A model generated the notes under the pieces. It did no database searches and had not been told where the DNA came from. It saw nothing but the letters and a program-made list of their open reading frames with translations. This document shows positions 1-56,724 of a DNA stretch of 64,000 nt, in pieces. Position numbers and translations under genes: made by a program. The first letter of the stretch is position 1. The number at the start of each line of letters is the position of its first letter. The stretch comes from Bacillota bacterium (GTDB lineage Bacteria > Bacillota > Dehalobacteriia > UBA4068 > UBA4997): assembly GCA_021771915.1 (NCBI GenBank), contig JAETNY010000009.1, forward strand, positions 40,038 to 104,037, written 5' to 3'.

Positions 1-154
1 AAACCTCGGCCAGAATATATTTGCCAATTTCTGACTCCTCCTGCTCAGAACGCGCTTTCAAAGCCGCTTTAACGTCCTCTGGCAGGTAATAAGCAGCGTC
101 CATACAAAGCTTTTCCACAGCATCAGCAATCACGCTTGCCTGTAATTCTCGCAT
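1..154 (-). CDS. Fe-S hydro-lyase (class I fumarate hydratase / tartrate dehydratase) alpha subunit, N-terminal fragment; the gene continues off the window
   Basis: Reverse-strand translation from the ATG (complement of 152-154) reads MRELQASVIADAVEKLCMDAAYYLPEDVKAALKARSEQEES.., which is typical of the FumA/TtdA alpha N-terminus. A GGAGTG Shine-Dalgarno lies 8 nt upstream. It sits downstream of the malic enzyme gene on the same strand. Confidence 0.55.
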   Translation of the reverse strand, partial: MRELQASVIADAVEKLCMDAAYYLPEDVKAALKARSEQEESEIGKYILAEV

Positions 155-190
155 TAAAAATCACTCCTTATCTCATATATGGGCGAGGTT

Positions 191-1372
191 TTAGATACGC
201 GCTACGCCGGAAGCCTTGGCCGCATCAGCCACAGCTTTGGCAATAACCGCCGCCACATTCTTATCCAGCGCGCTGGGAATAATGTTCTCATTGTTCAGTT
301 CAGCGTCCGGAATATAACCAGCCAGCGCCTTAGCTGCCGCCAGCTTCATTTCTTCATTAATATCAGAAGCGCGTACGGCCAGTGCGCCCTTAAAGAGGCC
401 CGGGAATACCAGTACATTATTAATCTGATTGGGGAAATCAGAACGACCTGTACCGATTACCGCGGCACCGCCTGCTTTGGCCTCGTCGGGGAAAATTTCC
501 GGTGTGGGATTGGCCATAGCAAAGATAATTGCATCTTTAGCCATAGTTTTCACCATATCGGTGGTCAACAGGCCGGGCTTGGATACGCCAACGAAAACAT
601 CAGCATCTTTAACTGCGTCAGCCAGACCGCCGGTGCGTCCCTCATGGTTAGTCTGCGCAGCCAAATCCTTGTGGTTATCATTCAACATGGTGGCAGGAAC
701 ATCTTTGTTGATAATGCCCTCCATGTCCACCAGGAACATATCTTTAACGCCCATTGCCAGAATAATCCGGGCAATGGCGGAACCAGCCGCACCACAACCG
801 TTAATAACAATTTTCAAATCTTCCATCTTCTTGCCCACAACCTTGGCGGCATTGATGATGGCGCTTAAAACGCAAACGGCAGTGCCATGCTGGTCATCAT
901 GGAAAATCGGAATATCCGTTTCTTCCTTCAGGCGCTGCTCAATATAGAAGCAACGGGGAGCCGCAATATCCTCCAGATTTACGCCGCCGAAAACCGGAGC
1001 AATATTTTTAACGATTTTGATAATTTCTTCATCGTCCTGGGTCTCAATACAAATCGGAAAAGCGTCTACATCAGCAAATTCCTTAAACAGGATACTCTTA
1101 CCCTCCATAACCGGAATTGCCGCCTTGGCGCCAATATTGCCCAAGCCCAAAACCGCGCTGCCGTCAGAAACCACAGCCACCAAATTGCCCTTGGCGGTGT
1201 ATTTATAAACATCATCTGCGTTATCGCGGATTTTGCGGCAAGGCTCCGCTACACCAGGAGTATAAGCAGTGCTTAAATCATCTCTGGTCTTAACCTCCAC
1301 CTTGCTGACGACCTCGATTTTGCCCTGATGCTTCTCATGCATTTCCAGAGCCAGTTGGTTATAATCTGCCAT
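191..1372 (-). CDS. NAD(P)-dependent malic enzyme (malate dehydrogenase, decarboxylating)
   Basis: 393-aa ORF. The N-terminus GKIEVVSKVEVKTRDDLSTAYTPGVAEPC and the Rossmann motif GCGAAGSAIARI are characteristic of short bacterial malic enzymes. Confidence 0.9.
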   Translation of the reverse strand: MADYNQLALEMHEKHQGKIEVVSKVEVKTRDDLSTAYTPGVAEPCRKIRDNADDVYKYTAKGNLVAVVSDGSAVLGLGNIGAKAAIPVMEGKSILFKEFADVDAFPICIETQDDEEIIKIVKNIAPVFGGVNLEDIAAPRCFYIEQRLKEETDIPIFHDDQHGTAVCVLSAIINAAKVVGKKMEDLKIVINGCGAAGSAIARIILAMGVKDMFLVDMEGIINKDVPATMLNDNHKDLAAQTNHEGRTGGLADAVKDADVFVGVSKPGLLTTDMVKTMAKDAIIFAMANPTPEIFPDEAKAGGAAVIGTGRSDFPNQINNVLVFPGLFKGALAVRASDINEEMKLAAAKALAGYIPDAELNNENIIPSALDKNVAAVIAKAVADAAKASGVARI

Positions 1373-1552
1373 TTTACATCTTCCTCTCTTTCATTTGCAG
1401 TTTTGCTGCAATTTTTTCAGGCAGAAGCGCCGGGCCGGTAAAAAAGCCTTTTACTTCTTCTCTACTTTATATAATAAACTATTTACGCAACAATTACAAC
1501 TGAATTTTTTAAAATATTGACATAATTTCTTATTGATTCGTTTTTATTCAAT

Positions 1553-1597
1553 AAAAAAGGCAAGCCCACACATTTTTGCGCAGGCTTGTTTTTTTAT
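1553..1597 (-). terminator. Rho-independent terminator downstream of the 1625..2977 gene
   Basis: Hairpin caagcc-N16-ggcttg with a U-tract on the minus strand. It is nearly identical, as a reverse complement, to the terminator at 59080..59118. Confidence 0.6.
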
Positions 1598-1624
1598 TTT
1601 ATAATATATTAAAACATACGTTTT

Positions 1625-2977
1625 TCAGTTTGTTGATATAGTAATGGTGCGGTTGGCGTTATCCCAGTCCACCTGCGCCTGCAAGGCCTCTGCCACAAAA
1701 CGCAGCGGCACCATGGTGCTGCCGTTTCTGGTATCGGCCGGAACGTCCAGATTAATGGTCTGGTCGTTTTTTATTGCCGATTTTTGCCCCAGAACCAGCT
1801 CAATCACAGTTTCCCCTTTAGTCGCCGTAATCTTCCGGCTGGCCGCGTCAAAATCCACGCTGGCGTTCAAAGCCTCAAAAATGGCCCGCATCGGCACCAG
1901 AGTTACGTCGTTGGCTACGTAAGGCGGCTGGGTGAACGAAAGCCGGCTGCCGTTCAAAATTACGCTGATTGGTTTTTCCGCCTGCCTGATGAAGCCCAGG
2001 CCGTTGTTAACATCCCGGCCGGTGAAAACCTTTTTGCCGTCATAATACAGATTAATGGAGCCGCCGCCGTCCAGACACATGGCGTTCACCAGCCCCAGCG
2101 ACTGGCAATAGGCCGCAGCGTCTTTGGGAGTGGCGCTGTTGATGCGGCCAATCACAATTTCGCCGTTGGCTTTGTTGCCGATAAAAGAGCGCGGCACACT
2201 GTTGGCAATTTTAGAATCCTGAAAGCCCTCCGCCGCCGGGTCTGCCGTCACGTTGCCGTTGATAAGCAAGCTGGGGCCGGCCCCCAAAGCCTGCTGCACA
2301 TTCTCCCAATCCGCCGCGCTGGTGTAAGTGGTATTGAATGTTGGGCTGTAACTAACCCTATCGCCCACGTTAATGCTACATTTGGCGTCAACATTGAACA
2401 TAATGGCAAAACCGCCGGCCGGAACCGTGAAAGGCGAACTGGTAATGTTGCTGACCGTGCCATCGCCGCCCACCAACACGGCCTTGCCGCCGGCATAAGG
2501 CGTGATTTGGCCGGCAAATTCCGAAGTGTATAGCACAATGGCGTCGCTGGTTTCACAATCATGATTGATACGCCAGGCCTTGAAAGTTTGCGCATCATTT
2601 ACGGTGCAGTTGATAGTAATATCCAGACGGTCAATCAGCAGCCGGCCGTCGGACGTAATCCCCATAACCGCGCCGCCGCCGATGTGCAACAGCTTGCCAT
2701 CGCGCATAACCGTGCCGTCAGGGAAAGGAGCGCCACCATAGGCGTTGAAATAAGTGCCGTTGATTGCGGCAAAAGCGTTGTTGTCCTGCGCCATTCCGGC
2801 CAGAGATTGGGTACGATTGGCCGCGCCATGGGCAGTCATGACCCGAGCCACTGTCGTGTTCATATCAATGGTGTACCAAGTGCCGCTGGCCGCCAGAGCC
2901 GGCACAACCGGCATGGCAAACAACAGGGCTCCGCCCAGCAACACACTGACAAGCATCTTTCTCAGAAACTTTTTCAT
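1625..2977 (-). CDS. Secreted phosphodiester-glycosidase-family protein with a C-terminal copper-amine-oxidase N-domain-like repeat
   Basis: 450 aa with an N-terminal signal peptide (MKKFLRKMLVSVLLGGALLFAMPVVPALA). The C-terminal repeats VPMRAIFEALNASVDFD / VPLRFVAEALQAQVDWD match Cu_amine_oxidN1-type wall-associated domains. Confidence 0.65.
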   Translation of the reverse strand: MKKFLRKMLVSVLLGGALLFAMPVVPALAASGTWYTIDMNTTVARVMTAHGAANRTQSLAGMAQDNNAFAAINGTYFNAYGGAPFPDGTVMRDGKLLHIGGGAVMGITSDGRLLIDRLDITINCTVNDAQTFKAWRINHDCETSDAIVLYTSEFAGQITPYAGGKAVLVGGDGTVSNITSSPFTVPAGGFAIMFNVDAKCSINVGDRVSYSPTFNTTYTSAADWENVQQALGAGPSLLINGNVTADPAAEGFQDSKIANSVPRSFIGNKANGEIVIGRINSATPKDAAAYCQSLGLVNAMCLDGGGSINLYYDGKKVFTGRDVNNGLGFIRQAEKPISVILNGSRLSFTQPPYVANDVTLVPMRAIFEALNASVDFDAASRKITATKGETVIELVLGQKSAIKNDQTINLDVPADTRNGSTMVPLRFVAEALQAQVDWDNANRTITISTN

Positions 2978-3065
2978 TACAATCTCCTCTTCACTTAATT
3001 TAATGGATAAAATAACTTTAACAATCTTATTTTAAGCCAAAAAACTTAAAAAGTCCAGAGTTTTT

Positions 3066-4240
3066 TTATTTTGCTACGTTTTCGCAAAATCGCATCAACA
3101 TCATAGCCACTTCGGCGCGCGTGGCATTGCCGGCCGGCTTCAACGCGCCGTTATCGCCATTGATAATACCTGCGCCAACTGCCCATTGCATGGCTTCCTG
3201 CGCCCAATCAGAAACACTGCCGCTGTCGCTGAAATTGCTCAAAGAACCTTTAACGCTAACATCATAACCTTTAAACTGCGCAAAACGATACAGAACCGCC
3301 GCCAGCTGCTCACGCGTTATCATATCGTTCGGGGCAAACGTGCCGTCTTTATAACCATTAACCACGCCGTTGGCCGCCGCCCAGGCAATCGCTTCGCTGA
3401 ACCACTGACCAGAAGCCACATCGCTGAAATCAGCCGCGCCGGCTTTCGGCTCACCCTCCAGGCGGAAAAGCATAGTTACCAGCATCGCCCGGGTAGTCGT
3501 GGCGTCAGGCTCAAACTTGCCTGCGTCCGTGCCGTTCATCATGCCTTTGTTGTAAACATAAGCAATCGCTTCGGAATACCAGGCGTTATTCTGCACGTCG
3601 GCAAACTTATTGTTAACATTCGCCGCCGTTACCGTCTTATTGTTGTCGATTGTTGTACCAGGTTTATTTGTGTCGCCCGGTTTTTCGGTAGTACCCGGTT
3701 TGGTAGTGGTGGTGCCGCTCGGCCGGCTGCTGCCGCCATGACTGCCACCGCCGCCATTATACTGCCAGATTGCATAAACAGTTGTATCCGCCGTAAAAGT
3801 ATAAACATCATTGGCTTTCACTTTGTTTTCGCTGTCTTTGTCGCCGATTGCCCAAGCAGTCAGAGTATAGCGGCTCTTGGTCGCCGTGGGCATTTTGTAT
3901 GTTTCGCCTTTGATTACATAATCAGGGTTGGTGATACCCTCCGCCAGAGTGCCGCCGTCAGTATCAAAGGTAATAGTGTAAACCTTATCCGCCGTAACCG
4001 TTACTGCGCAAGTCGCTTTTTTATCACCGGCTGTGGCGGTGATTATGGCCGCGCCCTTGCCAACAGCCGTAACCTTGCCGTCTTTATCCACCGTGGCAAC
4101 CTTTGCGTTGCTACTGATAAACATGATATTTTTGTTAGTGGCGTTTGCCGGGGCAACTGTGGCGGTCAGTGTTGCTGTGCCGCCAACTTCCAAATTCAAT
4201 GCGGTTTTATCCAGAGTTACGCCAGTAACTGGAATATTTG
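3066..4240. repeat. Shared C-terminal module (Big_2 + List_Bact repeat + linker + 3 SLH), copy A; diverged inverted paralog of 57900..59055
   Basis: Protein-level identity is near-colinear over about 390 aa. Nucleotide identity is roughly 80% by eye. Confidence 0.8.
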
Positions 4241-6125
4241 TTGGCTGTTCTGGCATAGTGCTGTTATAATGAATTTGTACGTTTTCAGGTACATTACTTT
4301 CCGCATTTTTAATTTTTAACCAGTCTTCCTCTGTGCCCTCATAATACATATCTGTTAGGTTTTTTGCCCATACAAACATGGTTTCAGGAAAAGCACATTC
4401 CACAACGCTTTTTGGTATATAGATTTCGTTTAAAGCATCAGCCATAAAAGCACTTTCGATAATAAATACGCTATCAGGAACAACGTAAATTTTGTTTGTA
4501 TTTGCATCAAAATATTGAATTAAAGTAGTTTTATCTTTGTCAAATAAGACCCCATTTTCTATACAATAATTATCATTATTGGTATTTAATAAAACTTCCG
4601 TTAATTTAGGACAACCAGACAAGGCACCAATATAAATTTTTTCAACACTTGCCGGAATTGAAACACTAACAAGATTGTTGCAACCATTAAAACAAAAATC
4701 ACCTATTTCAAGTAAACCCTCCGGTAAAATTATTTTAGTCAAATTTTCCTTGTCTGTAAATGCAAATGGAGCAATATATTTTACAGCAGTTCCCTTAATT
4801 TCCGACGGAATATCAGCAACCGTAACGCCAACATCACAACCTGTTATAGTATTGGTTGCTTTAATAAAATAAATATTGCCTCCCACAACAGGATATAATA
4901 ATTCAGGCTCAGGATAATCTGTATAATCATAAGAATAGCCAAATAAATCATCTAATGAATAACCGCTTTTAGATAATAGTGTGCTTAATTCTTTTTCACT
5001 GCCCTCATAAGTTATATCCAGATTACTGTTAGTATCCAAGGACTGTAAACCAATACTTTTTATGCCTTTGTGCATAGTCAAATATCTTAAATTGCTGCAA
5101 TTATAAAATACATGATTGCCTATTTGGGTTACAGGTACATCATCAATACTTTTAGGTATAACAACAGAAGTAACAGTATCATCACAGCCAACTATAATAC
5201 CTGTTGCTTTATCAAAATACATATATCCACCAGATACTGCAACTTTTTCATATGATGAGAAATCTTCACTCGCAAAAGAAATATTGACATTTTTCAAAAC
5301 ATCATCAACCGTGTCCATCACATTTATTTTTGCCCATTCTGCTCGAGAACCTAAATAATTAATATTTTTTAAATCAGATGCAGCAAATGCAGAACCATAA
5401 ATTCTGGTAATAGTTGCTGGCACAGTAATATCAGCCAGCTTATAACAATTTGCAAATACACTTCTTGAAAAGCCCATAAATCCTTCAGGGAAATTAATAT
5501 TTTCTAAATTTCTACAATCATAAAATGCAGATTGATTAATCATTGTACAAGAGATTGGTAATTTAACACTGGTTAATTGATTACATCTATTAAATGCATC
5601 ATGATTTATGGTTGTTACAGTGTCTGGAACTGCATATATTCCTGTTTTACCTATTGGACATCTTAACAAAATAGTTTTATCTTTATTAAATAAAACACCA
5701 TTTTCAGTAGAAAAATCAGAATTTGAGGAGGATACCATAATTTCTTTTAACTTAGGACACCCTGAAAAAACACCACTGACCTCATTTCCCCCAATGCTAT
5801 TTACAGTAGCAGGTATGCTAACCATATAGAGATTATCGCAACCAGCAAAGGCATTTTTACCAATAACTTTTACACCATTATAAACCGTAACAACTGTAAT
5901 ATCGTCACGATATGCGGCCCAAGGTTGCGTTTCTAATGTATAATCTGGCATTGCCGCATTAATTTGTCCCTCATATTTGTAAATTTCCAGATTGCCCTCA
6001 CTGTTTAACTGCCAACTTATGTCTCCGGATAGACCACTGGCAACAGTGGCCGCCCAGGCCGCAGGCGCCATACTTAGCGCCAGCAAAAATGCCAGCGCCA
6101 GCACGGCAAAAATTTTCTTTTTCAT
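3066..6125 (-). CDS. Cell-surface protein with BspA-type leucine-rich repeats, a Big_2 domain, a Listeria-Bacteroides repeat, a G/S/T/P linker and three SLH domains
   Basis: 1019 aa with a signal peptide (MKKKIFAVLALAFLLALSMAPAAWA). The LRR_5-like repeats are AT-rich (roughly 4300-5900). The C-terminal 390 aa, including the SLH motifs FADVQNNAWYSEAIAYVYNKGMMNG.., is paralogous to the 56725..59055 protein. Confidence 0.85.
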   Translation of the reverse strand: MKKKIFAVLALAFLLALSMAPAAWAATVASGLSGDISWQLNSEGNLEIYKYEGQINAAMPDYTLETQPWAAYRDDITVVTVYNGVKVIGKNAFAGCDNLYMVSIPATVNSIGGNEVSGVFSGCPKLKEIMVSSSNSDFSTENGVLFNKDKTILLRCPIGKTGIYAVPDTVTTINHDAFNRCNQLTSVKLPISCTMINQSAFYDCRNLENINFPEGFMGFSRSVFANCYKLADITVPATITRIYGSAFAASDLKNINYLGSRAEWAKINVMDTVDDVLKNVNISFASEDFSSYEKVAVSGGYMYFDKATGIIVGCDDTVTSVVIPKSIDDVPVTQIGNHVFYNCSNLRYLTMHKGIKSIGLQSLDTNSNLDITYEGSEKELSTLLSKSGYSLDDLFGYSYDYTDYPEPELLYPVVGGNIYFIKATNTITGCDVGVTVADIPSEIKGTAVKYIAPFAFTDKENLTKIILPEGLLEIGDFCFNGCNNLVSVSIPASVEKIYIGALSGCPKLTEVLLNTNNDNYCIENGVLFDKDKTTLIQYFDANTNKIYVVPDSVFIIESAFMADALNEIYIPKSVVECAFPETMFVWAKNLTDMYYEGTEEDWLKIKNAESNVPENVQIHYNSTMPEQPTNIPVTGVTLDKTALNLEVGGTATLTATVAPANATNKNIMFISSNAKVATVDKDGKVTAVGKGAAIITATAGDKKATCAVTVTADKVYTITFDTDGGTLAEGITNPDYVIKGETYKMPTATKSRYTLTAWAIGDKDSENKVKANDVYTFTADTTVYAIWQYNGGGGSHGGSSRPSGTTTTKPGTTEKPGDTNKPGTTIDNNKTVTAANVNNKFADVQNNAWYSEAIAYVYNKGMMNGTDAGKFEPDATTTRAMLVTMLFRLEGEPKAGAADFSDVASGQWFSEAIAWAAANGVVNGYKDGTFAPNDMITREQLAAVLYRFAQFKGYDVSVKGSLSNFSDSGSVSDWAQEAMQWAVGAGIINGDNGALKPAGNATRAEVAMMLMRFCENVAK

Positions 6126-6542
6126 TATATATAACCTCCTAAAAAATTTTGTATCTCAGCAGCCGAAACACCAAAGGGCATATTTAAGTGAAGGAGTTGG
6201 TGAAAATATGCCCCCAGGTATTGGCCGCCAAGACAACAAAAAATACGCGCGCAGGCATAATTCACCCACACACGCATAGAAAACCCTTTTCAGGAGGGAT
6301 TATACTTCTAAAGCGCAGCACCACACAACCGCTTACCAAAAAACGGTTGAAAAAAACATCTTGTAAAAAAGATACAGTTATACTATAATAATAACTGGTA
6401 GTGGCACTTGCACAAAAAAGCAGTTGTGTATGGCTGGAGTAGTCAGCCTGCATAGGGGCGCTGGGTATTCGCAGTACCTCAGCCCCTGCCGCTACTTTTT
6501 TTGTTGCCCCGGTTACTACAAAAACAACGGGATACACCTTTA
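6126..6542 (-). promoter_or_regulatory. Conserved long 5' leader of SLH gene A, with a terminator-like hairpin at about 6232..6277 on the minus strand
   Basis: About 90% identical to leader B in two blocks. Hairpin AUGCGUGUG-N17-CGCGCGUAU followed by a U-run, about 110 nt before the start codon. Confidence 0.55.
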
Positions 6543-6570
6543 TTATAATGCTAATAAATACATTTATCAA
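6542..6570 (-). promoter_or_regulatory. Sigma-A-type promoter for SLH gene A (TTGATA-17-TATAAT on the minus strand)
   Basis: -35 is the complement of 6565-6570 and -10 is the complement of 6542-6547. Same position relative to the conserved leader as the promoter at 56334..56362. Confidence 0.5.
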
Positions 6571-6876
6571 TATATTTTTACAAGAAATTTAAATTTTTTT
6601 CTCGCCGCCAGCTTGATTAAAATGGCAGACAAAGCAAAAGGCAGATTTACATTGACAAAATCTGCCTTTAAGGGTAAAATATAAACAGGCACCACATAAG
6701 TTGGTAGGCGGTTAGCTGTTGACCCTCTTGCAAAGGAGGTGAGGCCTATGCGAATAAGCTTTTTTGATGTATGGTGTTTCCACATCATCATAAACATAAA
6801 GTTAAAAAAGCATAGAAAAACCCGCCACTCGGCATAGTGACAGGTTTTAAGATTTAATAATTTGTTACAAAGGCTG

Positions 6877-6965
6877 GCCGCTTATCAGTGGCGCCTATTT
6901 AGTAATATTATAGTGCAGTTTAGCAAATTTGTCAATAAATTTTGGAATTTCATTTGATTAAAGAG
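6877..6965 (+). repeat. About 85-nt conserved intergenic element E, copy A, immediately upstream of nadE
   Basis: ggctggCCGCTTATCAGTGGcGCCT..TATTATAGT..AATTTgTCAA..TTGGAATTT aligns with 56171..56260 in the same orientation. It contains a TTATCA-N17-TATTAT promoter-like spacing. Confidence 0.5.
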
Positions 6966-6977
6966 AGGAAAAATAAT

Positions 6978-8663
6978 ATGAAAATAGCCCTTGCCCAGAT
7001 AAAGGTTCGCGCCGGACGGCCGGACATAAATTTTCAAAACATGCTGGATTTCTGCCGTCAGGCCGCCAAACAGCAGGCGGATTTAATCGTCTTTCCAGAA
7101 CTGGCCGTGAGCGGGAGTTTTTTGGGTCAGGCCTGGGCCAGCCCCGGCCTGCTGGCTGAAATTCAGAAATTTAACCAGAAGCTGATTGCCGCCAGCAGTC
7201 AGCTGCATGAAGCCGTAATTGTATTCGGCAGTATCGGCATGGTAAAAACTCCGGACGGCAACAGTTCACCCACCAGCGCCATTTACGTGGCGCAAAACGG
7301 CACGCAGCTTTCCTCACCGGCCGGCGGTTTCCGCGCCAAGGTAAATGGTCAGACGCTGGATTTTGCCCTGCTGACCGAGCAGCAAAGCCAGCCGGCCGCG
7401 CCCATTGTACTGAAGCTAGCCACCTCCTGCTTTGTGCAGGAAAAAACGCCGCAGTTTTACCAAAGCTTTGCCGCTTATGCCAAAACCTATGGCAAGACGC
7501 TGGTTTATGTTAACCACGTCGGCGTGCAAGACGCCGGCAAACCGGTCTATGTTTATGACGGCGCCAGCGCTGTTTTCAACCCGGACGGCGAACTGCTGGC
7601 CGCCGCGCCCCAGTTTGCGGAGCATCTGCTGCTTTTTGACACGGAACATACGCCGAAGCCGCTGGAACTGCCCAAAACCGACAGCACCGCCGCACTTTAC
7701 GACGGTCTGGTACATGCTATCCGCGAGTATTCGACCAATTTGGGTATAAACCGGGCAGTAATCGGCTTATCCGGCGGTATCGACTCCTGCCTGAACGCCT
7801 GCCTGCTGACTGCCGCTTTGGGCAAGGAAAATGTTTTGGGTATCAATCTGCCCTCCCGTTATAATTCCGACGCCACCCGGGAATGTGCGGAAAAGCTGGC
7901 CGCAAATTTGGGTATTCGTTATGAGGTGCTGCCCATTCAGGATATGGTAGACCAGCGCGCTGAACTGCTGGCCCGGCTTAACCTGCCCCTTTCCAAGGAA
8001 ATGCTGGAAAATGTACAGTCAAGGGAACGTGGTTCCGGCTTTTTGGCTGCAGCCGCGGCTGCTTTCGGTGGCGCTGTAATCTGTAATGGCAACAAAAGCG
8101 AGTTTACAATCGGCTATGCTACCATGTACGGTGACGCTATCGGTTATTTTGCACCTCTGGGCGACCTCTGGAAATGCCAGATTTATGAAATTGCCCGATA
8201 TATTTATGAAACTTCCGGTCTGCTGCCGCTGGCCGCGCTGGAACTCCAGCCCAGCGCCGAACTTTCTGACGCGCAGGATATTGAAAAAGGTCTGGGCGAC
8301 CCCCTTTGCTATGCTTACCATGATTATCTGTTCCGCAGTTGGGTGGAATGGGGTCAGGATATCACCGACAGTCTGACCTTTTATGAACAGGGCAAGCTGG
8401 CCGAGGTTACCGGCTGCGGCACTGAACAGCTGCGCCAGCTTTTCCCGGACACTGAAAGTTTTCTGGCTGATTTGGAGCGTTGGTGGCAGTTATATCGGGG
8501 ACTGGCCGTGGCCAAGCGTTTACAGGCGCCGCCGGTTCTTTCCCTCTCGCGCCGGGCTTTTGGCGCCGACCTGCCGGAAAGTCAGACCGGCTGCCATCTG
8601 GACGATGAATATTTAACCCTGAAAGCCAAAGTGCTGGCCAAAGCCGACCAGCTGGCATTTTAA
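6978..8663 (+). CDS. nadE: Glutamine-dependent NAD+ synthetase (nitrilase/CN-hydrolase domain + NAD synthase PP-loop domain)
   Basis: MKIALAQIKVRAGRPDINF.. is a CN-hydrolase start, and GLSGGIDSCLNACLL is a PP-loop. GAGAGGA Shine-Dalgarno before the ATG at 6978; the ORF track begins at 6942. Confidence 0.9.
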   Translation: MKIALAQIKVRAGRPDINFQNMLDFCRQAAKQQADLIVFPELAVSGSFLGQAWASPGLLAEIQKFNQKLIAASSQLHEAVIVFGSIGMVKTPDGNSSPTSAIYVAQNGTQLSSPAGGFRAKVNGQTLDFALLTEQQSQPAAPIVLKLATSCFVQEKTPQFYQSFAAYAKTYGKTLVYVNHVGVQDAGKPVYVYDGASAVFNPDGELLAAAPQFAEHLLLFDTEHTPKPLELPKTDSTAALYDGLVHAIREYSTNLGINRAVIGLSGGIDSCLNACLLTAALGKENVLGINLPSRYNSDATRECAEKLAANLGIRYEVLPIQDMVDQRAELLARLNLPLSKEMLENVQSRERGSGFLAAAAAAFGGAVICNGNKSEFTIGYATMYGDAIGYFAPLGDLWKCQIYEIARYIYETSGLLPLAALELQPSAELSDAQDIEKGLGDPLCYAYHDYLFRSWVEWGQDITDSLTFYEQGKLAEVTGCGTEQLRQLFPDTESFLADLERWWQLYRGLAVAKRLQAPPVLSLSRRAFGADLPESQTGCHLDDEYLTLKAKVLAKADQLAF

Positions 8664-8686
8664 CATTCGTCAGCAAGGATATTTTT

Positions 8687-9745
8687 ATGTCTAGTATTAA
8701 TGTTATCGACCTTTTTTGTGGTTGCGGCGGCCTGTCTTTCGGATTTTCAAAGGCTGGTTATAATATCCTGCTTGGAATTGATAATGACGCCAAAGCACTG
8801 GAAACATTTAAATTAAATCACCTTAATGCAAAAGCAATTTGCAGTGATATTACCCAAATATCATACCAAAAAGATATTAAACCATTAATAGAACCATGCC
8901 AAATAGATGTGATTATTGGCGGCCCTCCCTGTCAGGGTATGTCCTTATCCGGCCCCAGAAAATTCGATGACCCAAGAAATTCCTTATATTTATCTTATAT
9001 CAGACTGGTTAAAGAAATTCAACCTAAAGCTTTTGTTATTGAAAACGTACCTGGTCTAACCAGTCTTTTTGGCGGACAGATAAAAGATAATATAATTGAA
9101 CAGTTTAGCCAAATCGGCTATCATGTGCAGTATAAAATCCTTTGCGCATCAGACTATGGAGTGCCACAAAGCAGACGCAGAGTATTTTTCATCGGACTAA
9201 AATCCGGCAGCTTCACTTATCCACAGCCAACTGATAATGTTGTTACTTGCAGCATGGCTCTGAATGACCTGCCCAGTTTAATCAGCGAGTTGGGCGATGA
9301 AATAATGGCCTATGCAACAGAACCGCAAAACGATTATCAAAAACAAATGCGAAAACATTCAAAAAGTGTACAGAACCACATTGCTGCTAATCATACAGAC
9401 AAAGTACGCAAAATAATCTCTTTGGTTCCTGACGGCGGAAATTATAAAGATTTGCCGGAAGAATACAAAACAAGTAGAAATTTTCATATTGCCTGGACAC
9501 GATTTGACAGCAACAAGCCCGCACCTACTATTGATACCGGGCATCGTCATCATTTTCATTACAAATATAACCGGGTTCCAACTGTAAGAGAATGTGCAAG
9601 ATTGCAGTCTTTTCCAGATAATTTTATTTTTCTGGGTAATAAAACTCAACAGTTCAGACAGGTTGGCAATGCCGTGCCGCCACTTTTAGCGCAAAGAATT
9701 GCTGAACAATTAAAGAAATCATTGGAGAATGAAATAAATGGCTGA
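8687..9745 (+). CDS. DNA (cytosine-5)-methyltransferase, M1 of a restriction-modification cassette
   Basis: Motif I FCGCGGLSFGF, motif IV GGPPCQGMS, motif VI ENV, motif VIII RRRVFFIG, motif X QVGNAVPPLLA. The region is AT-rich relative to its flanks. Confidence 0.9.
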   Translation: MSSINVIDLFCGCGGLSFGFSKAGYNILLGIDNDAKALETFKLNHLNAKAICSDITQISYQKDIKPLIEPCQIDVIIGGPPCQGMSLSGPRKFDDPRNSLYLSYIRLVKEIQPKAFVIENVPGLTSLFGGQIKDNIIEQFSQIGYHVQYKILCASDYGVPQSRRRVFFIGLKSGSFTYPQPTDNVVTCSMALNDLPSLISELGDEIMAYATEPQNDYQKQMRKHSKSVQNHIAANHTDKVRKIISLVPDGGNYKDLPEEYKTSRNFHIAWTRFDSNKPAPTIDTGHRHHFHYKYNRVPTVRECARLQSFPDNFIFLGNKTQQFRQVGNAVPPLLAQRIAEQLKKSLENEING

Positions 9746-11201
9746 ATATAAAATTCCCGAAGAATATTATTTCAGATTACACCATGTCCGCCCACGTTTT
9801 AAGAGTGATATTGAAAATGTCTTAATTTATATGGCGGAAGAAATTACTTCAATAGGACAAAAACCAACCCAGGAGTTTGTCAGGCTTATTAATTCAGCCG
9901 TTTTCAGATATCCCGGCAATGCGCATAGCACACTTAAAACTATAAATAATTGGCGCACTGAAATATCTGCTTTATTTGGTTTTATTGAACATGATGAATT
10001 AACCTGCAAACCCGGCAGGCGTGCTGTTGAATTAGCAACAAACCAGGATTTGGTAGAAGCCTTTAAGGTTTTTTTATATAACTTTCAATATCCAGGCGCT
10101 CATATTAAACCACACCGCATTTTAGAACAAATTAATGCCGGTATTCATTTTAAACCGGCGCAATATATATTACGTTTGCTAAAACACGCTAATAAAAACA
10201 GCCAAAACGCGGTTGGTTTAACAAAGTTTGAGGTTTGTCACTGCATTTTCAACGATTTAAGAGTAACCCGTGATAATGAAGGCGTTGAAAACACCTGGCA
10301 GAGAATAAAACTAAATCGCCAAAATAATTTAGAATACGACCAAACAGGCGATGTGATAAGATATGCCGGCGATATTGTTGACTACATGGAAAAAGCCAAT
10401 TTGTTAAAAACATATGACAACCGTACATATTATCTTAATATGCAGGAGAAAACAATTATCAACCAATTCTGCCAATCAACAGAATGGTTTGACGGTTATG
10501 ACCATATGCTGCAAAATCGTGCCGGCAATAAGACCAGTATTAAGGAACAAACAAATGCCTGGTTTGAATATGTAAACAGGGATATTGAAAATATTGATTT
10601 TTCAACAAACATTTTTGCATACATTGAATATAACCCAACAAAACTGCAACAATTACAAGCAGGCACTGGCAATATAACAAAAGGTTCTTTTAAAACTCTT
10701 ATAAAACGTGAAGCGGAATTGAATAAACGCATTGCTGTTGGTGAAGATGAACTTACGGCTAAGGATATCGGCGATATCGGCGAACAGCTGATACATGGCC
10801 ATGAATGTATGAGAATGAAGCTGGGCAACAGAGAAGATTTAATACATCTAATAAAATTGATACCAACACAATTTGCAGTTGGCTACGATATAAATTCTGT
10901 CGAATTAAATGAACTGAAAAGATTTATTGAAGTAAAAACAACAATTAGCGCTAAGCCATTGCATTTTACTAAAATACATTTGACCAGAAACGAATGGAAT
11001 ACAGCCAGAAGTACCCATGATCGTTACTATATTTATCGGCTGATGTTAAGTAAAACTGAACGCAAATTATTTTTGTTGCAAGACCCAGTTGGCTTATACG
11101 AAAAGAAGTTAATAGAAATTGCTTATAATGACGGAATAGATATTATATTTAACCCCAAAACAGCAGGAAAGTATGAGGAATTGCTTACATGGCAAAATTA
11201 A
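9738..11201 (+). CDS. Putative restriction endonuclease: novel N-terminal region plus a C-terminal DUF3883-like PD-(D/E)xK nuclease domain
   Basis: Translationally coupled between the two C5-methyltransferases, with 8-nt and 13-nt overlaps. The C-terminus reads DIGDIGEQLIHGHE...GYDI...ELKRFIEVKTT...YYIYRL, i.e. a D...E-x-K core. Confidence 0.55.
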   Translation: MAEYKIPEEYYFRLHHVRPRFKSDIENVLIYMAEEITSIGQKPTQEFVRLINSAVFRYPGNAHSTLKTINNWRTEISALFGFIEHDELTCKPGRRAVELATNQDLVEAFKVFLYNFQYPGAHIKPHRILEQINAGIHFKPAQYILRLLKHANKNSQNAVGLTKFEVCHCIFNDLRVTRDNEGVENTWQRIKLNRQNNLEYDQTGDVIRYAGDIVDYMEKANLLKTYDNRTYYLNMQEKTIINQFCQSTEWFDGYDHMLQNRAGNKTSIKEQTNAWFEYVNRDIENIDFSTNIFAYIEYNPTKLQQLQAGTGNITKGSFKTLIKREAELNKRIAVGEDELTAKDIGDIGEQLIHGHECMRMKLGNREDLIHLIKLIPTQFAVGYDINSVELNELKRFIEVKTTISAKPLHFTKIHLTRNEWNTARSTHDRYYIYRLMLSKTERKLFLLQDPVGLYEKKLIEIAYNDGIDIIFNPKTAGKYEELLTWQN

Positions 11202-12166
11202 GAGTTGCATCACTATTTTGTGGCTGCGGCGGAACTGATGTTGGTTTGCTTGGCGGTTTTGATTTTATAGGTAAACATTATGCAAATAATAATATAGAAA
11301 TTGTTTATGCCAACGATATAAACGATAATGCCTGTAAATTATTTGAAGCAAACTTCAATCTCAAACCAGATAATAGGGATATCAGAAAAGTACAGTGTAC
11401 AGAACTGCCGGAATTTGATATATTAACCGGCGGCTTTCCCTGCCAATCTTTCTCTATCGTTGCTCAAAACCCAAAACGCTTAGGCGTTAATGATGAAAAA
11501 GGAAAACTCTTTTTTGAAATGTGCCGTATCCTTAAAGAAACAAAACCCAAATGTTTTGTGGCTGAAAATGTTAAAGGAATTTTAACAGCTAATAAAAAAA
11601 GTGCATTTCCCTTAATTTTGCAGGAATTTGCGGAAAGTGGCTATGACTTGCAATATGCTATTTTAAATGCCGCGGATTTTGGCGTGCCACAAAAAAGAGA
11701 ACGTGTAATAATCGTTGGCTTTCGTAAAGATTTGAATATCAGATTTAAGTTTCCGACAGTTCCTATTACTAACGAAACTGAATATGTGCCTCTGAAAAAG
11801 GTATTGGAAAAACATGTGCCAGAAAAATACTATTTCAGCGCTAAAGCGGTTCAGGGAATGTTAAAAAACCGGGAAAGTATGAACAAAGGACGCGCGCAGG
11901 ATATTACAAAACCATGTAATACAGTTGGCGCGCATTTGGCCAAGGTATCGCTTAACAGCACAGACCCCGTTTTATTTGAAAACAACAGATATCGACGCTT
12001 TACACCAAGAGAAGTTGCCAGAATTCAGTCTTTTCCTGAAGAATATAAATTAACTTGCAGTGAAACCGCTCAATATCAGGCGCTGGGCAATGCAATACCA
12101 CCTGTTATGTTCTGGTATGTTGCACAGGCAATAAGCCGACATTTAACCAAAAAAGCATCAATCTAA
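11189..12166 (+). CDS. DNA (cytosine-5)-methyltransferase, M2 of the cassette
   Basis: FCGCGGTDVGL (motif I), GGFPCQSFS (motif IV), ENVKGIL (motif VI), RERVIIVGF (motif VIII), ALGNAIPPVM (motif X). Confidence 0.9.
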   Translation: MAKLRVASLFCGCGGTDVGLLGGFDFIGKHYANNNIEIVYANDINDNACKLFEANFNLKPDNRDIRKVQCTELPEFDILTGGFPCQSFSIVAQNPKRLGVNDEKGKLFFEMCRILKETKPKCFVAENVKGILTANKKSAFPLILQEFAESGYDLQYAILNAADFGVPQKRERVIIVGFRKDLNIRFKFPTVPITNETEYVPLKKVLEKHVPEKYYFSAKAVQGMLKNRESMNKGRAQDITKPCNTVGAHLAKVSLNSTDPVLFENNRYRRFTPREVARIQSFPEEYKLTCSETAQYQALGNAIPPVMFWYVAQAISRHLTKKASI

Positions 12167-21435: not shown

Positions 21436-21523
21436 GCGGATGTGGCGGAATTGGCAGACGCGCTAGATTCAGGTTCTAGTGAGGGTTAACTTCGTGGGGG
21501 TTCAAGTCCCTTCATCCGCACCA
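21436..21523 (+). tRNA. tRNA-Leu (anticodon CAG), with a long variable arm and an encoded CCA
   Basis: GCGGATG acceptor stem. Anticodon stem ctaga/tctag with loop ttCAGgt. T-arm GGTTCAAGTCC. 88 nt. Confidence 0.9.
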
Positions 21524-23957: not shown

Positions 23958-26048
23958 ATGAGCAATAAACAGAAGGTTCTGATTGTGGACGATTCAGAAA
24001 TGAACCGTTCCATTTTGGCGGATATTCTGGGCGATAAATATGAAATAATTGAAGCTGAAAACGGCGTGCAGGCCGTGGCCACTATCCAGAAGTATGGCGC
24101 AGAACTTTCTGTGGTGCTTCTGGATATGGTTATGCCCAAAATGGACGGTTTTGGTGTGTTGGATATGATGAACCAACACCATTGGATTGATGAAATCCCA
24201 GTGATTATGATTTCCGCCGAAAGTTCCTCCTCTTATGTGGAGCGTGCTTATGATATGGGCGTTACCGATTTTATCAGCCGCCCCTTTGACGCGCTGATTG
24301 TCCGCCGGCGCGTTATCAACACCATTTTGCTTTATGCCAAGCAGAAAAAGCTTACCAGCCTTTTGGCTGACCAGCTGCTACAAAAGGAAGAACGCAGCAA
24401 TTTGATGGTGGACATTTTAAGCCACATTGTAGAATTTCGTAACGGTGAGAGCGGCATGCATGTTATTCACGTCCGCCTGATTACCGAGCTTTTGCTGAAC
24501 CATTTAATGCATAAGGTTGAACGCTACAATGATTTGACCCATGAAGACTTGGATATGATTAGCATGGCCTCCGCCCTGCATGATATTGGCAAAATATCCA
24601 TTGATGAAGCAATTTTGAACAAACCCGGCCGGCTGACCGATGAAGAATTTGCGATTATGAAGACCCATGCTCTGATTGGCGCGCAAATGCTCTCAGAAAT
24701 GCCTTATAAAGATAATAAGCTTATCCAGACAGCTTATGAAATTTGCCGCTGGCACCATGAGCGTTATGACGGCAGCGGTTATCCCGATGGTCTGAAAGGC
24801 GATGAAATTCCGATTTCCGCCCAGATTGTGGCAATGGCCGATGTTTATGACGCTCTGACCAGTGAGCGCGTTTATAAAAAAGCCCTGCCGCATGAAACTG
24901 CTGTGCAGATGATTATAGATGACAAATGCGGCGTCTTTAACCCGGAATTAAAAGAATGTTTGCTTGATGTGGCCGAAACAATCCGCAGCACACTGGCTTC
25001 CGACGTGGTGGCCTTAAACCAGAAGCGAGCTTCTCAGAACGCAGTGGCGGAGATGTTGCGCAACAATGAAACCAGCGCTTCAGAGCGCACATTGCGGCTG
25101 CTGGAAAAAGAAAGAGAGAAATATAAATTCTTCGCTGCGCTAACTAAGGAAATTCAGGTTGAATATAATCCTGACCCACCCACGCTGACGCTCTCCCCCT
25201 GGGGCGCGCAAAAGCTTGGACTGGACGAAATTATCATGGACCCTCAGAATAATGAGCAGGTTCTGACTGTGACCGGCGCGGAAAATTGGCAGAAGATAAC
25301 TGAACTGCTGTTAAACTCCACACCAGAGCAGCCGATGATTAAATATGACTGCAAGATGTTTTATAATGGAGAGTTGCGTTGGCATCAGGTTATTGCTCGC
25401 GCCATGTGGCAGCAGGAGGACGAACCAATCTTTCAGGGCGCTATTGGCAAGGTTATTGATATTCATGATTCCAAACAGCGTCTGGCAGAGTTGGAGCGCA
25501 AGGCCAATCATGACTCCTTAACAGGTCTGCTGAACCATGCCAGCGCCAAAAAACATATCATTGAAAGTCTGGAAGGACACCCACACGACAAATATGCACT
25601 GATTATTTTTGACCTGGACCATTTCAAAAATGCCAACGATACCTATGGCCATATTTTTGGCGATGAGGTTTTAAAGCTGGAAGCGCAAAAGTTAAAAGGC
25701 AGCTTGCGCGCCGGCGATATTGCCGCCCGTATTGGTGGTGATGAATTTTTAATCTTCCTTCGTTATACAGATGAGGTTGAGCCAATTATTGAGCGTATTT
25801 TTAAAACATTGATTGGCCGGCATGAAGATTTTGAATTTACGGTAAGCATGGGCATAGTGCAAACTGAGTTTGCGGATAATGATTATGAAACACTTTTCCA
25901 TTGCGCCGACCAGGCGCTTTATGCGGCCAAACGCGGTGGCCGCGGACGCTATTGCTTTTATAGAGATGATTTGCCGGATACTATTCATAATAAAGCAAAA
26001 TCATCTCTTTCCAAGATTGAAAGCAACGACCCAAACCGTGAATGTTAA
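23958..26048 (+). CDS. Response regulator with REC + HD-GYP phosphodiesterase + GGDEF diguanylate cyclase domains
   Basis: REC reads VLIVDDSEMNRSIL...LLDMVMPKMDG. HD-GYP reads HVIHV..ALHDIGK..HHERYDGSGYP. GGDEF reads RIGGDEFLIFL. Confidence 0.85.
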   Translation: MSNKQKVLIVDDSEMNRSILADILGDKYEIIEAENGVQAVATIQKYGAELSVVLLDMVMPKMDGFGVLDMMNQHHWIDEIPVIMISAESSSSYVERAYDMGVTDFISRPFDALIVRRRVINTILLYAKQKKLTSLLADQLLQKEERSNLMVDILSHIVEFRNGESGMHVIHVRLITELLLNHLMHKVERYNDLTHEDLDMISMASALHDIGKISIDEAILNKPGRLTDEEFAIMKTHALIGAQMLSEMPYKDNKLIQTAYEICRWHHERYDGSGYPDGLKGDEIPISAQIVAMADVYDALTSERVYKKALPHETAVQMIIDDKCGVFNPELKECLLDVAETIRSTLASDVVALNQKRASQNAVAEMLRNNETSASERTLRLLEKEREKYKFFAALTKEIQVEYNPDPPTLTLSPWGAQKLGLDEIIMDPQNNEQVLTVTGAENWQKITELLLNSTPEQPMIKYDCKMFYNGELRWHQVIARAMWQQEDEPIFQGAIGKVIDIHDSKQRLAELERKANHDSLTGLLNHASAKKHIIESLEGHPHDKYALIIFDLDHFKNANDTYGHIFGDEVLKLEAQKLKGSLRAGDIAARIGGDEFLIFLRYTDEVEPIIERIFKTLIGRHEDFEFTVSMGIVQTEFADNDYETLFHCADQALYAAKRGGRGRYCFYRDDLPDTIHNKAKSSLSKIESNDPNREC

Positions 26049-37516: not shown

Positions 37517-37731
37517 AATATGACAATTTAAGCTTTGGCAGCGGTTAAAAGATTTTTTTATTTTTGTCAACTTTACAGAAAAAACCCTTGACTTTAATCA
37601 GGCATAGTGCTATACTGAAACAAGTATTCAAGATAATAGCTTATTACGCGCAATAAACCAGAAGTTGATTGATTTGGCGATATTTGTTCATTTTCTATGG
37701 GTACGAAAATTTTTGACAGGAGGTACCCAAA

Positions 37732-37947
37732 ATGAATAACGGTACAGTAAAATGGTTCAACGCAGAAAAAGGATTCGGTTTCATTGCTAATGATGAAGGC
37801 GGCGATGACGTTTTCGTACATTTCTCTGCCATTCAGACTGACGGCTATCGCACTCTGGACGAGGGACAGAAAGTTACTTTTGAAGTTGAAGCTGACCCAA
37901 AAAACCCCAGCAAACTGCGCGCAGCTAATGTTTGCAAAGTTGGCTAA
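37732..37947 (+). CDS. Cold-shock protein (CspA family)
   Basis: [35 protein letters not shown]. Confidence 0.95.
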
Positions 37948-37974
37948 ACCAGCTATTTAATTAAACAAAATACA

Positions 37975-38010
37975 AAGGAACTGTTGAAAATCTTCAACAG
38001 TTCCTTTTTT
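37975..38010 (+). terminator. Rho-independent terminator after csp
   Basis: aaggaactgttgaa-aatc-ttcaacagttcctt followed by TTTTTT. Confidence 0.8.
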
Positions 38011-51492: not shown

Positions 51493-51636
51493 TAATCACT
51501 AAGTTCTGCCTGCGGCCTTTGGCCTTGGCAATCACTAAGTGTTCAGTAGACGATTCCATCTGGCTGCGCCCGATGGATAAATTCACACTAAGTTCTGCCT
51601 GCGGCCTTTGGCCTTGGCAATCACTAAGTGTTCATT
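51493..51636 (+). repeat. Two identical 49-nt direct repeats (51497..51545 and 51588..51636), each containing the sub-repeat AATCACTAAGT twice; the 42-nt spacer forms its own hairpin
   Basis: cactaagttctgcctgcggcctttggccttggcaatcactaagtgttca occurs twice. Each unit contains the palindrome-like core GGCCTTTGGCC. Confidence 0.85.
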
Positions 51637-56333: not shown

Positions 56334-56362
56334 CTTGACTATAAGAGTTGTTAGCGGTACAA
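56334..56362 (+). promoter_or_regulatory. Sigma-A promoter of SLH gene B (TTGACT-17-TACAAT)
   Basis: Read directly. Positioned 20 nt upstream of the conserved leader block. Confidence 0.55.
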
Positions 56363-56724
56363 TAAAAATACAAGGCGACAAAAAAAGTTGCGGCAGGGAC
56401 TGTGGGTACGCCAATACCCCAGACCCCCTATGCAGGCTGCTCTACCCAGCCATACACAACTGCTTTTTATGTGTCGCAGCGCCGCTACATTTAGTATAAT
56501 ACAAGTCAGCCCGTTCTGCAAGGGTTAAGTTGTTGGTTTTTCAGTTGAGCTGCTGCACTTTAGAAGATTATTCCTCCTGAAAAGGGGTTTCTATGCGTGT
56601 ATGGGTGAATTATGCCTGTACGCGCATTTTTTGTTGTTTTGACGGCCTTGCACGATGGGGCGGCTTGCCGGGGCTGCTCCCGGTGTTGGGCTGTTAAGAC
56701 CACACTTTTAGGAGGTTATTTATA
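56363..56724 (+). promoter_or_regulatory. Conserved long 5' leader of SLH gene B, with a terminator-like hairpin at 56593..56640
   Basis: AUGCGUGUA-N17-UACGCGCAU followed by UUUUUUGUUGUUUU. Two blocks are about 90% identical to leader A. Confidence 0.55.

Follow-up and report, generated by a model that had tools for sequence, protein, structure and literature searches.

Two genes for surface proteins with S-layer homology (SLH) domains lie about 50 kb apart and in opposite orientation in the genome of an uncultured gut Bacillota bacterium (GTDB lineage Dehalobacteriia; UBA4068; UBA4997). They were studied in a stretch of 64,000 nucleotides (nt), hereafter the window (assembly GCA_021771915.1, contig JAETNY010000009.1, positions 40,038 to 104,037). 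The two proteins are alike at both ends and differ in the middle, which raises the question of how such mosaics arise. A preliminary description of the window proposed exchange of passenger domains as cassettes on a conserved wall-anchoring scaffold. Comparison between strains bears this out for the locus of gene A; it does not apply to the A/B pair itself, in which the shared modules are 72–76% identical, as in old paralogs, nor to the locus of gene B. We consider it probable that A and B are members of a family of wall-anchored surface proteins, specific to this lineage, whose passengers have been diversified by recombination within conserved 5' and anchor modules. The coordinates of both open reading frames (ORFs) were confirmed, and the parts of the two genes are as follows.

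3066..6125, minus strand: gene A, 1019 aa; signal peptide, BspA-type leucine-rich repeat (LRR) passenger, Big_2, Flg_new, G/S/T/P linker, three SLH domains.
56725..59055, plus strand: gene B, 776 aa; signal peptide, orphan N-terminal domain, Ig-like domain, Big_2, Flg_new, linker, three SLH domains.
6048..6125, minus strand: signal peptide A, aa 1–26 (MKKKIFAVLALAFLLALSMAPAAWA/A), part of the conserved 5' module; matches aa 1–26 of B.
4285..6033, minus strand: passenger cassette A, LRR_5 repeats of low GC; the segment replaced between strains.
56803..57879, plus strand: passenger B (aa 27–385), an orphan domain of ~200 aa followed by an Ig-like domain.
3075..4232, minus strand: anchor module A by Pfam, with Big_2 (4232..4002), Flg_new (3980..3771), G/S/T/P linker and three SLH domains (3605..3075).
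57895..59049, plus strand: anchor module B by Pfam, with Big_2 (57895..58119), Flg_new (58147..58356), linker and three SLH domains (58519..59049).

Pfam analysis recovered the common C-terminal module of ~390 aa (Big_2, Flg_new, G/S/T/P linker and three SLH domains) in both proteins. Protein A matches LRR_5 (E = 2e-54), SLH (1.9e-35), Big_2 (1e-15) and Flg_new (4e-8), and protein B matches SLH (4.7e-35), Big_2 (1e-18) and Flg_new (8e-7). The LRR_5 repeats (PF13306) are of the BspA type and fall into four stretches of protein A, scoring 183 bits against a cut-off of 27.7; protein B has no Pfam match to this family. Both proteins contain a tandem triplet of SLH domains (PF00395), and TRAE-like motifs (TRAM, TREQ and TRAE) are readable in the sequences of A and B. 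A CsaB-like family, as would be expected in a host that makes pyruvylated secondary cell-wall polymer as the SLH ligand, was not found among the 10 window ORFs scanned.

The anchors are 74% identical in protein sequence (A626–1017 versus B386–775, 396 aa; BLASTP, E = 0) and 75.8% identical in DNA (A 4207..3091 versus B 57920..59033, 1128 nt; blastn, E = 0). The similarity is therefore not confined to generic SLH motifs but extends over a colinear block of 1128 nt; the earlier statement of colinearity at the DNA level holds, and its figure of ~80% identity has to be lowered to 75.8%. Codon by codon, identity between A and B rises from background to more than 60% at about A631/B390, dips in the G/S/T/P linker and peaks at 90–100% in the first SLH domain. 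The signal peptides, previously called near-identical, are merely similar, with 18 of 26 residues shared (~70%; counted by hand on the BLASTP alignment). Both N-termini consist of a KKK stretch, a hydrophobic core and an AWA/A or ACA/A end, and read as Sec/SPase I-like. Passengers A27–625 and B27–385 have no significant similarity to each other by BLASTP, and LRR_5 is present in A only. The preliminary description overlooked a further similarity of ~380 nt ahead of both start codons (A 6508..6079 versus B 56374..56771; 72%, E = 5e-52), which corresponds to a shared leader. An independent contig (L031) is 100% identical to the window over 7759..1589, so gene A is no assembly chimera. Judging from the 72–76% DNA identity of the shared modules, A and B are old paralogs, and the pair itself would not result from a recent exchange.

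Replacement becomes apparent when locus A is compared between strains. Contigs covering this locus were gathered via the NAGPA protein encoded next to gene A. In five contigs of the same species (L025–L029), an allele of 856 aa lies between nadE and the NAGPA gene. These contigs are 99.5% identical to the window over 8781..6034, a span that takes in nadE and the leader and runs to nucleotide 92 of the coding sequence, and 96% identical over 4284..1, and they have no blastn similarity to the passenger-coding segment in between (window 6033..4285). The 5' junction is abrupt: nucleotides 1–92 of the coding sequence are identical and similarity is then lost. The 3' junction falls at an IHYNST motif just ahead of Big_2. 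The LRR passengers of the window and of the L025–L029 allele share ~30% protein identity. In total, the slot at locus A is occupied by at least five structurally different alleles in one species, within flanks that are ~94–100% identical. One type with a non-LRR passenger (P0001/P0056-like) is found in L030 and L004 and has a full-length relative in L016; another (P0003 type, L005) combines a non-LRR passenger with an anchor devoid of Big_2. L006 lacks both the SLH and NAGPA genes at this position, and the leader precedes a gene for an 83-aa membrane protein. Metagenome contigs L003–L005 end near the passenger–anchor junction (window ~4380–4164), which is to be expected where co-occurring strains diverge. 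Divergent alleles within near-identical flanks in one species, the hallmark of cassette switching, were observed at locus A and not at locus B.

Base composition sets the passengers apart as well. The stretch of gene A previously noted as AT-rich coincides with the passenger, which has a GC content of 0.33 and a GC content at third codon positions (GC3) of 0.20. Within this single gene, GC3 steps from 0.65 in the signal peptide to 0.20 in the passenger and back to 0.55 in the anchor; in eight housekeeping or neighbouring genes it is 0.52–0.67. The same high–low–high profile (signal peptide 0.5–0.75, passenger 0.13–0.30, anchor 0.5–0.78) is seen in gene A of the window, L025, the 926-aa gene of L001, L014, L016 and L009. 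Passengers of such foreign composition point to cassettes that may have been imported or may have evolved separately.

Adjoining locus A, a second slot that varies among strains is found between nadE and the MatE gene. In the window it holds a restriction–modification system in a low-GC island (8687..12166, plus strand; GC3 ~0.30), with two C-5 cytosine methylases flanking a BpuJI-like endonuclease. L025, from the same species, has another system there, consisting of a DNA methylase and RE_Eco47II.

The anchors of same-species locus A alleles are themselves mosaic, with tracts of 98–100% identity alternating with tracts of 60–85%. In a tree built from the region between Flg_new and the C-terminus, anchors group by species and not by locus: A and B of the window form a group with 88% bootstrap support and the two genes of a second species with 62%. 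Both loci are syntenic in the second species, and species-wise clustering despite this synteny indicates probable homogenisation among paralogs, i.e. concerted evolution. Concerted evolution is no sign of recent exchange, as A and B still diverge by 24–28% in DNA.

Locus B presents a different picture. The order glmS, leader, gene B, 4HBT and secA is the same in 8/8 contigs among the matches listed (the best 8 of 18). Some of the alleles encode 861 or 864 aa, corresponding to the 776-aa form with one additional Big_2 of 85 aa near 58027–58090; otherwise they are ~99% identical. Recent exchange between A and B was considered as a source of the additional domain and rejected: this Big_2 is 78% identical in DNA to the alternative Big_2 of locus A, and no clearly B-derived anchor tract was found in locus A alleles. 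By this measure, the extra Big_2 of the long allele probably stems from the same pool of modules, not from a recent transfer. Passenger B is peculiar in its own right. When 1.84 billion representatives were searched exhaustively with HMMER, the first ~200 aa matched only the own species besides two weak partial hits, and residues ~207–359 matched Ig-like repeats; a word-indexed homolog search returned the own species only. A single-sequence AlphaFold model consists mostly of strands and has a mean pLDDT of 43, a confidence at which it says little about the beta-rich character ascribed to this passenger in the preliminary description. Separately, an intergenic segment at 51497..51634 contains two perfect 49-nt direct repeats 89 nt apart, and same-species contigs have an indel or duplication of ~114 nt there.

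Several observations weigh against recombinational diversification as the general explanation. No passenger replacement was found at locus B in the eight contigs examined, so the two loci differ in how active the mechanism is. No donor of passenger A was found either; outside its own species the best LRR_5 proteins are 24–34% identical, and composition is what speaks for a horizontal origin. Selection on the sequence, instead of foreign origin, could in part explain why GC3 is low in passengers. One might then regard A and B as plain ancient paralogs, which arose by an old duplication followed by domain accretion and whose ends are kept alike by purifying selection with no ongoing exchange. 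The 72–76% identity of their shared DNA, the near invariance of locus B among strains and the commonness in Bacillota of SLH proteins with varied N-terminal domains would all fit. We nevertheless find this improbable, because it accounts neither for the at least five locus A alleles with a nucleotide-sharp breakpoint in ~94–100% identical flanks, nor for anchors that are mosaics of 100% and 60–85% tracts between strains and group by species instead of by locus, nor for GC3 values of 0.65, 0.20 and 0.55 within one gene.

Each gene of the family is composed of three modules. The first comprises a predicted sigma-70-like promoter, a structured leader RNA of ~350–390 nt and a predicted Sec signal peptide ending in AWA/A. 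The second is the variable passenger, made of BspA-type LRRs or orphan domains, and the third an anchor with zero to three Big_2 domains, Flg_new, the G/S/T/P linker and the SLH triplet. As in SLH proteins that have been characterised, this triplet may bind the protein non-covalently to a secondary cell-wall polymer. Under diversification by recombination, the conserved modules would serve as homology arms, and recombination inside them would replace the passenger-coding segment, so that a different domain is exposed with no change in expression, secretion or anchoring. Incoming DNA could derive from other strains or from other members of the family. The exchange itself is probably homologous, of the RecA type, and would follow DNA uptake, and the passengers may act as adhesins or be targets of phage or immune selection.

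The leader is the unclassified part of the first module. Its elements, together with the promoter-like sites, are these.

6542..6570, minus strand: promoter-like site A (TTGATA, 17-nt spacer, TATAAT), predicted, sigma-70-like; 11/12 in a consensus scan.
56335..56363, plus strand: promoter-like site B (TTGACT, 17-nt spacer, TACAAT), 10/12 in a consensus scan; aligns with the A promoter.
6126..6535, minus strand: leader A, a structured 5' untranslated region (UTR) of ~410 nt from the end of the -10 element to ATG; 382 nt from the conserved ACAAAAAAAGT.
56370..56724, plus strand: leader B, ~355 nt.
6412..6504, minus strand: 5' domain of leader A, three-way junction P0/P1/P2; covariance model R1, 102 bits.
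56378..56471, plus strand: 5' domain of leader B, three-way junction; covariance model R1, 91 bits.
6233..6277, minus strand: terminator-like hairpin of leader A (~15 bp) followed by UUUUUUGUUGU, predicted by terminator scan.
56593..56637, plus strand: terminator-like hairpin and U-tract of leader B, predicted by terminator scan.
6284..6297, minus strand: anti-Shine–Dalgarno (anti-SD) block of leader A (CCUCCUGAAAAGGG), predicted to pair with the Shine–Dalgarno sequence (SD) in single and consensus folds.
56573..56586, plus strand: anti-SD of leader B; the SD is at 56710..56715.
6135..6140, minus strand: SD of gene A (AGGAGG), read from the sequence; invariant in 10 leaders.

Leaders A and B are 72–76% identical and have an identical SD context; in the alignment of 10 leaders the position of the promoter-like site is conserved. 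Fold z-scores are -7.45 for leader A and -3.86 for leader B. Rfam 15 gave no gathering-level match to either leader, and at E-values up to 10 only chance-level hits, the best with 22.6 bits against a threshold of 49 and none common to both. The 5' domain of ~94 nt is built from three helices. In P0, an A-run and GUAG pair with CUGC and a U-run; P1 has an outer GGG/CCC and an inner CUGAGGUA/UACCUCAG part; and P2 consists of GGCUG, a 7-nt loop and CAGCC. The single-stranded sequences at the junction of these helices are invariant. In a MAFFT alignment of 10 copies, 91.9% of cells in the 5' domain are compatible with pairing, versus 42–60% in slid controls, six pairs are changed on both sides, and none of 500 shuffles reaches the covariation score. 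Covariance model R1 finds only the two leaders in the window, all other matches being short A/U hairpins of at most 19 bits.

Further downstream, a hairpin of 14–15 bp followed by a U-tract (UUUUUUGUUGU), i.e. a predicted intrinsic terminator, is present in 10/10 leaders ~100–125 nt upstream of the start codon, as is typical of attenuation leaders. One of its pairs is split into five GC and five AU over the 10 leaders, and the stem of leader B differs from that of A by a double compensatory change (G-C to A-U). The anti-SD (CCUCCUGAA) is predicted to pair with the SD in eight of the 10 leaders; the other two, L009 and L014, have a deletion of this block. A long covarying hairpin stands immediately upstream of the SD. 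The consensus fold of the nine full-length leaders contains 84 pairs, 15 of them with compensatory double changes. A long-range helix between GGCAAC at the 5' end and GUUGUC just past the U-tract is conserved in 9/9 leaders, with one double compensatory change. In addition, CAGCCAUACAC in the 5' junction is complementary to the 5' arm of the terminator over 8–10 bp in 10/10 leaders; both segments are invariant, which makes covariation uninformative here.

Two other roles of the leader were considered and rejected. A coding function is contradicted by the lack of conservation of the 102-aa ORF at 6262..6570 (minus strand), by leader indels that are not multiples of three and by the early stop of the leader B frame that starts at the conserved AUG. 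An invertible switch is contradicted by the absence of flanking inverted repeats and by the single orientation found in 10 leaders and in same-species contigs.

We infer that the leader regulates expression, most probably through read-through of the terminator-like hairpin and/or opening of the anti-SD:SD helix. The second route has a weakness that counts against our interpretation: with the anti-SD absent in two of 10 leaders, SD sequestration cannot be essential. A simpler function, that of an mRNA-stabilising 5' UTR of highly expressed surface-protein genes without any switch, as in Lactobacillus slpA, is a serious possibility, although short of an even chance. Stabilisation of S-layer transcripts by long structured 5' UTRs has been documented (PMC3666127), and the leader is strongly structured (leader A z-score -7.45; 84 consensus pairs) and invariably attached to envelope-protein genes. 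Three features fit a stabilising stem less well, none of them decisively: the conserved hairpin and U-tract in 10/10 leaders would terminate transcription unless bypassed, the anti-SD:SD helix is present in 8/10, and the invariant junction sequences look more like a ligand- or protein-binding site. We therefore suggest, tentatively and as a somewhat unlikely option, that the leader represents an undescribed class of cis-regulatory RNA, in which the 5' junction senses a signal, controls terminator read-through and/or SD access and thereby co-regulates an envelope regulon. Candidates for such a class are a riboswitch, an attenuator controlled by a protein or small RNA, and a processive-antitermination element. 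The regulon would include the SLH adhesins, a Cu_amine_oxidN1 protein and small DUF4190-like membrane proteins. As the leader travels with the signal peptide, a regulatory RNA of this kind would at the same time be an upstream homology arm for passenger swapping. Surface diversification by recombination is already known, and this unclassified structured leader is the only element of the system that might be new in kind.

The distribution of the leader is narrow. A 22-nt leader core scanned against 185,579 species-representative genomes yielded five loci, three of them in one metagenome-assembled genome (MAG). Together with loci reached via proteins, there are 10 distinct copies in all, the further ones all coming from ENA, NCBI and Logan contigs, and all family members that were retrieved have the leader ahead of them. 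Exact copies of leader blocks were sought in the JGI metagenome collection with zero matches, which restricts the module to a narrow lineage at the exact-match level. Related MAGs and metagenome contigs contain the same anchor and signal peptide, ending in AWAA or AWAT, with wholly different passengers, and the family signal peptide of gene A heads unrelated proteins in L001/L008, L010, L011, L014 and L016. Genes preceded by the leader encode LRR–SLH proteins, orphan-domain SLH proteins of 877, 687, 657 and 635 aa, a 284-aa Cu_amine_oxidN1 protein, a 468-aa LRR protein without SLH domains and DUF4190-like membrane proteins of 82–83 aa; the latter have the leader alone, without the family signal peptide. 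Given this variety of downstream genes, promoter, leader and, in secreted members, signal peptide constitute a portable 5' module for envelope proteins. Distant SLH homologs, with anchors ~32–54% identical, have unrelated signal peptides.

Contig L001, from a related species, displays several arrangements of these parts. The leader of locus A and the family signal peptide are fused to the 284-aa Cu_amine_oxidN1 protein (4104..4958), the C-terminus of which resembles that of the NAGPA protein of the window. The adjacent 926-aa LRR–SLH gene (4969..7749) begins with another signal peptide and lacks its own leader, which suggests an operon or a further rearrangement. A second, partial, promoter-proximal copy of the leader lies ~430 nt upstream of the full one (3171..3315; nhmmer E = 6e-12). 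In L011, from another related species, a CAP-domain SLH protein (2343..4403) is encoded ahead of the leader-bearing SLH gene; its signal peptide is a different one, and no copy of the leader was detected upstream. Some SLH proteins of the lineage thus do without the 5' module. Genes for c-di-GMP signalling are present in the window, where a response regulator with HD-GYP-like (HD_5) and GGDEF domains (23958..26048, plus strand) adjoins a hybrid histidine kinase (26512..29070, plus strand); an HD_5 gene is also found ~1 kb upstream of the leader in L014, with no link to the leader established.

The arrangement of A and B recalls the slpA/slpB genes of Lactobacillus acidophilus, which are oppositely oriented, with common 5' and C-terminal wall-binding parts and divergent middles. 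The L. acidophilus genome has two surface-layer genes, the mRNA has a long structured 5' UTR, and inversion places the silent slp gene at the active promoter (PMC3666127). In an analogous switch, a segment of ~50 kb would flip through the inverted shared ends of A and B and change the expressed surface protein; the preliminary description had likewise raised the idea of chromosomal inversion between the copies. Orientation, distance and the two common ends suit such a switch, and the clustering of anchors by species implies some exchange between the paralogs over evolutionary time. We nonetheless judge it highly improbable. L. acidophilus has one silent copy and a single expression site, whereas both genes here possess a promoter-like site, a leader and an SD, so that no silent copy exists. 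Crossing over within anchors or leaders would exchange near-equivalent ends and switch nothing on or off. The shared blocks (72–76% identity, ~75% on the whole) match exactly over no more than 26 nt (anchor) and 23 nt (leader), making a poor substrate for homologous recombination, and the leaders have no invertase-type flanking inverted repeats. All listed contigs across either locus are collinear with the window. The order nadE, gene A, NAGPA is kept in the six contigs spanning locus A, and no recombinant gene order, hence no inversion isomer, occurs in these or in the eight listed locus B contigs, although assemblies cannot exclude isomers of low frequency. Finally, the wall-binding domains of L. 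acidophilus are not SLH domains.

The NAGPA/Cu_amine_oxidN1 gene (1625..2977, minus strand), directly downstream of gene A in the species of the window, has changed place in a related MAG. In MGBC125362 its ortholog (L010 4229..5702; 87% identical) lies downstream of the locus B gene and is missing from locus A. An inversion between the anchors would not by itself account for the new position.

Passenger diversification by recombination at conserved modules has other precedents. In Clostridioides difficile, the exchanged unit of the S-layer is a multi-gene cassette of ~10 kb. Highly divergent alleles of the C. difficile slpA/cwp region occupy a fixed locus, and homologous recombination in the conserved flanks passes them from strain to strain (PMC7677006). 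Our family has in common with that cassette the pairing of a conserved wall-binding part with a variable exposed one. The anchor is SLH here and CWB2 in C. difficile, and the exchanged unit is intragenic, ~1.3–1.75 kb long and bounded by the signal peptide and Big_2 of one gene instead of multi-gene. The family also has a shared structured leader, none being described for the C. difficile cassette. The BSL proteins of Bacillus anthracis and the SLH proteins of Clostridium thermocellum are Sec-secreted and join three tandem SLH domains to varied functional or adhesin domains. In these families the triplet is often N-terminal, whereas here it is C-terminal and fused to a fixed stalk of Big_2, Flg_new and linker; the present family further differs from them in having one 5' leader and signal-peptide module in common.

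Passenger A and several other alleles resemble BspA of Tannerella forsythia and its homologs in matching LRR_5 strongly, and these LRR_5 passengers are likely to be adhesin-like, as is typical of BspA-like proteins. They are only ~24–34% identical to LRR_5 proteins outside the species, however, and gene B and several other members of the family lack LRRs altogether. In the vsp/vlp genes of Mycoplasma and in pneumococcal PspC, which are multigene or multi-allelic families of surface proteins, a conserved 5' UTR and signal peptide flank the variable exposed regions and promote recombination; the anchor of PspC is also conserved. These anchors are of the lipid or choline-binding kind, and mycoplasmas switch by site-specific inversion or repeat slippage. 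Unlike in the Mycoplasma systems, no recombinase or repeat-slippage signal was seen here.

The finding extends the pattern of S-layer and adhesin families and overturns nothing. It adds a clean natural example of intragenic cassette replacement in a surface protein of an uncultured gut Bacillota. One breakpoint immediately follows the signal peptide and the other closely precedes the Ig-like stalk; resolved to the nucleotide, they show which protein parts are interchangeable. This is of use in reading strain-level variation and fragmented metagenome assemblies and in predicting determinants of phage or host interaction. It also suggests a design for display scaffolds, in which leader and signal peptide are followed by any passenger and by the Big_2/Flg_new/SLH anchor. 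With the conserved leader comes a candidate for a new structured RNA tied to envelope proteins.

Two other RNA features were noted elsewhere in the window. A match to the Rfam cspA thermoregulator (37613..38007, plus strand; 85.6 bits against a gathering threshold of 78) spans the gene of a 71-aa cold-shock protein (37732..37947) together with its 5' UTR; coding sequence is part of the Rfam model, and the match may be driven largely by the conserved CSD gene. The sole tRNA gene in the window is tRNA-Leu(CAG) at 21436..21523 on the plus strand.

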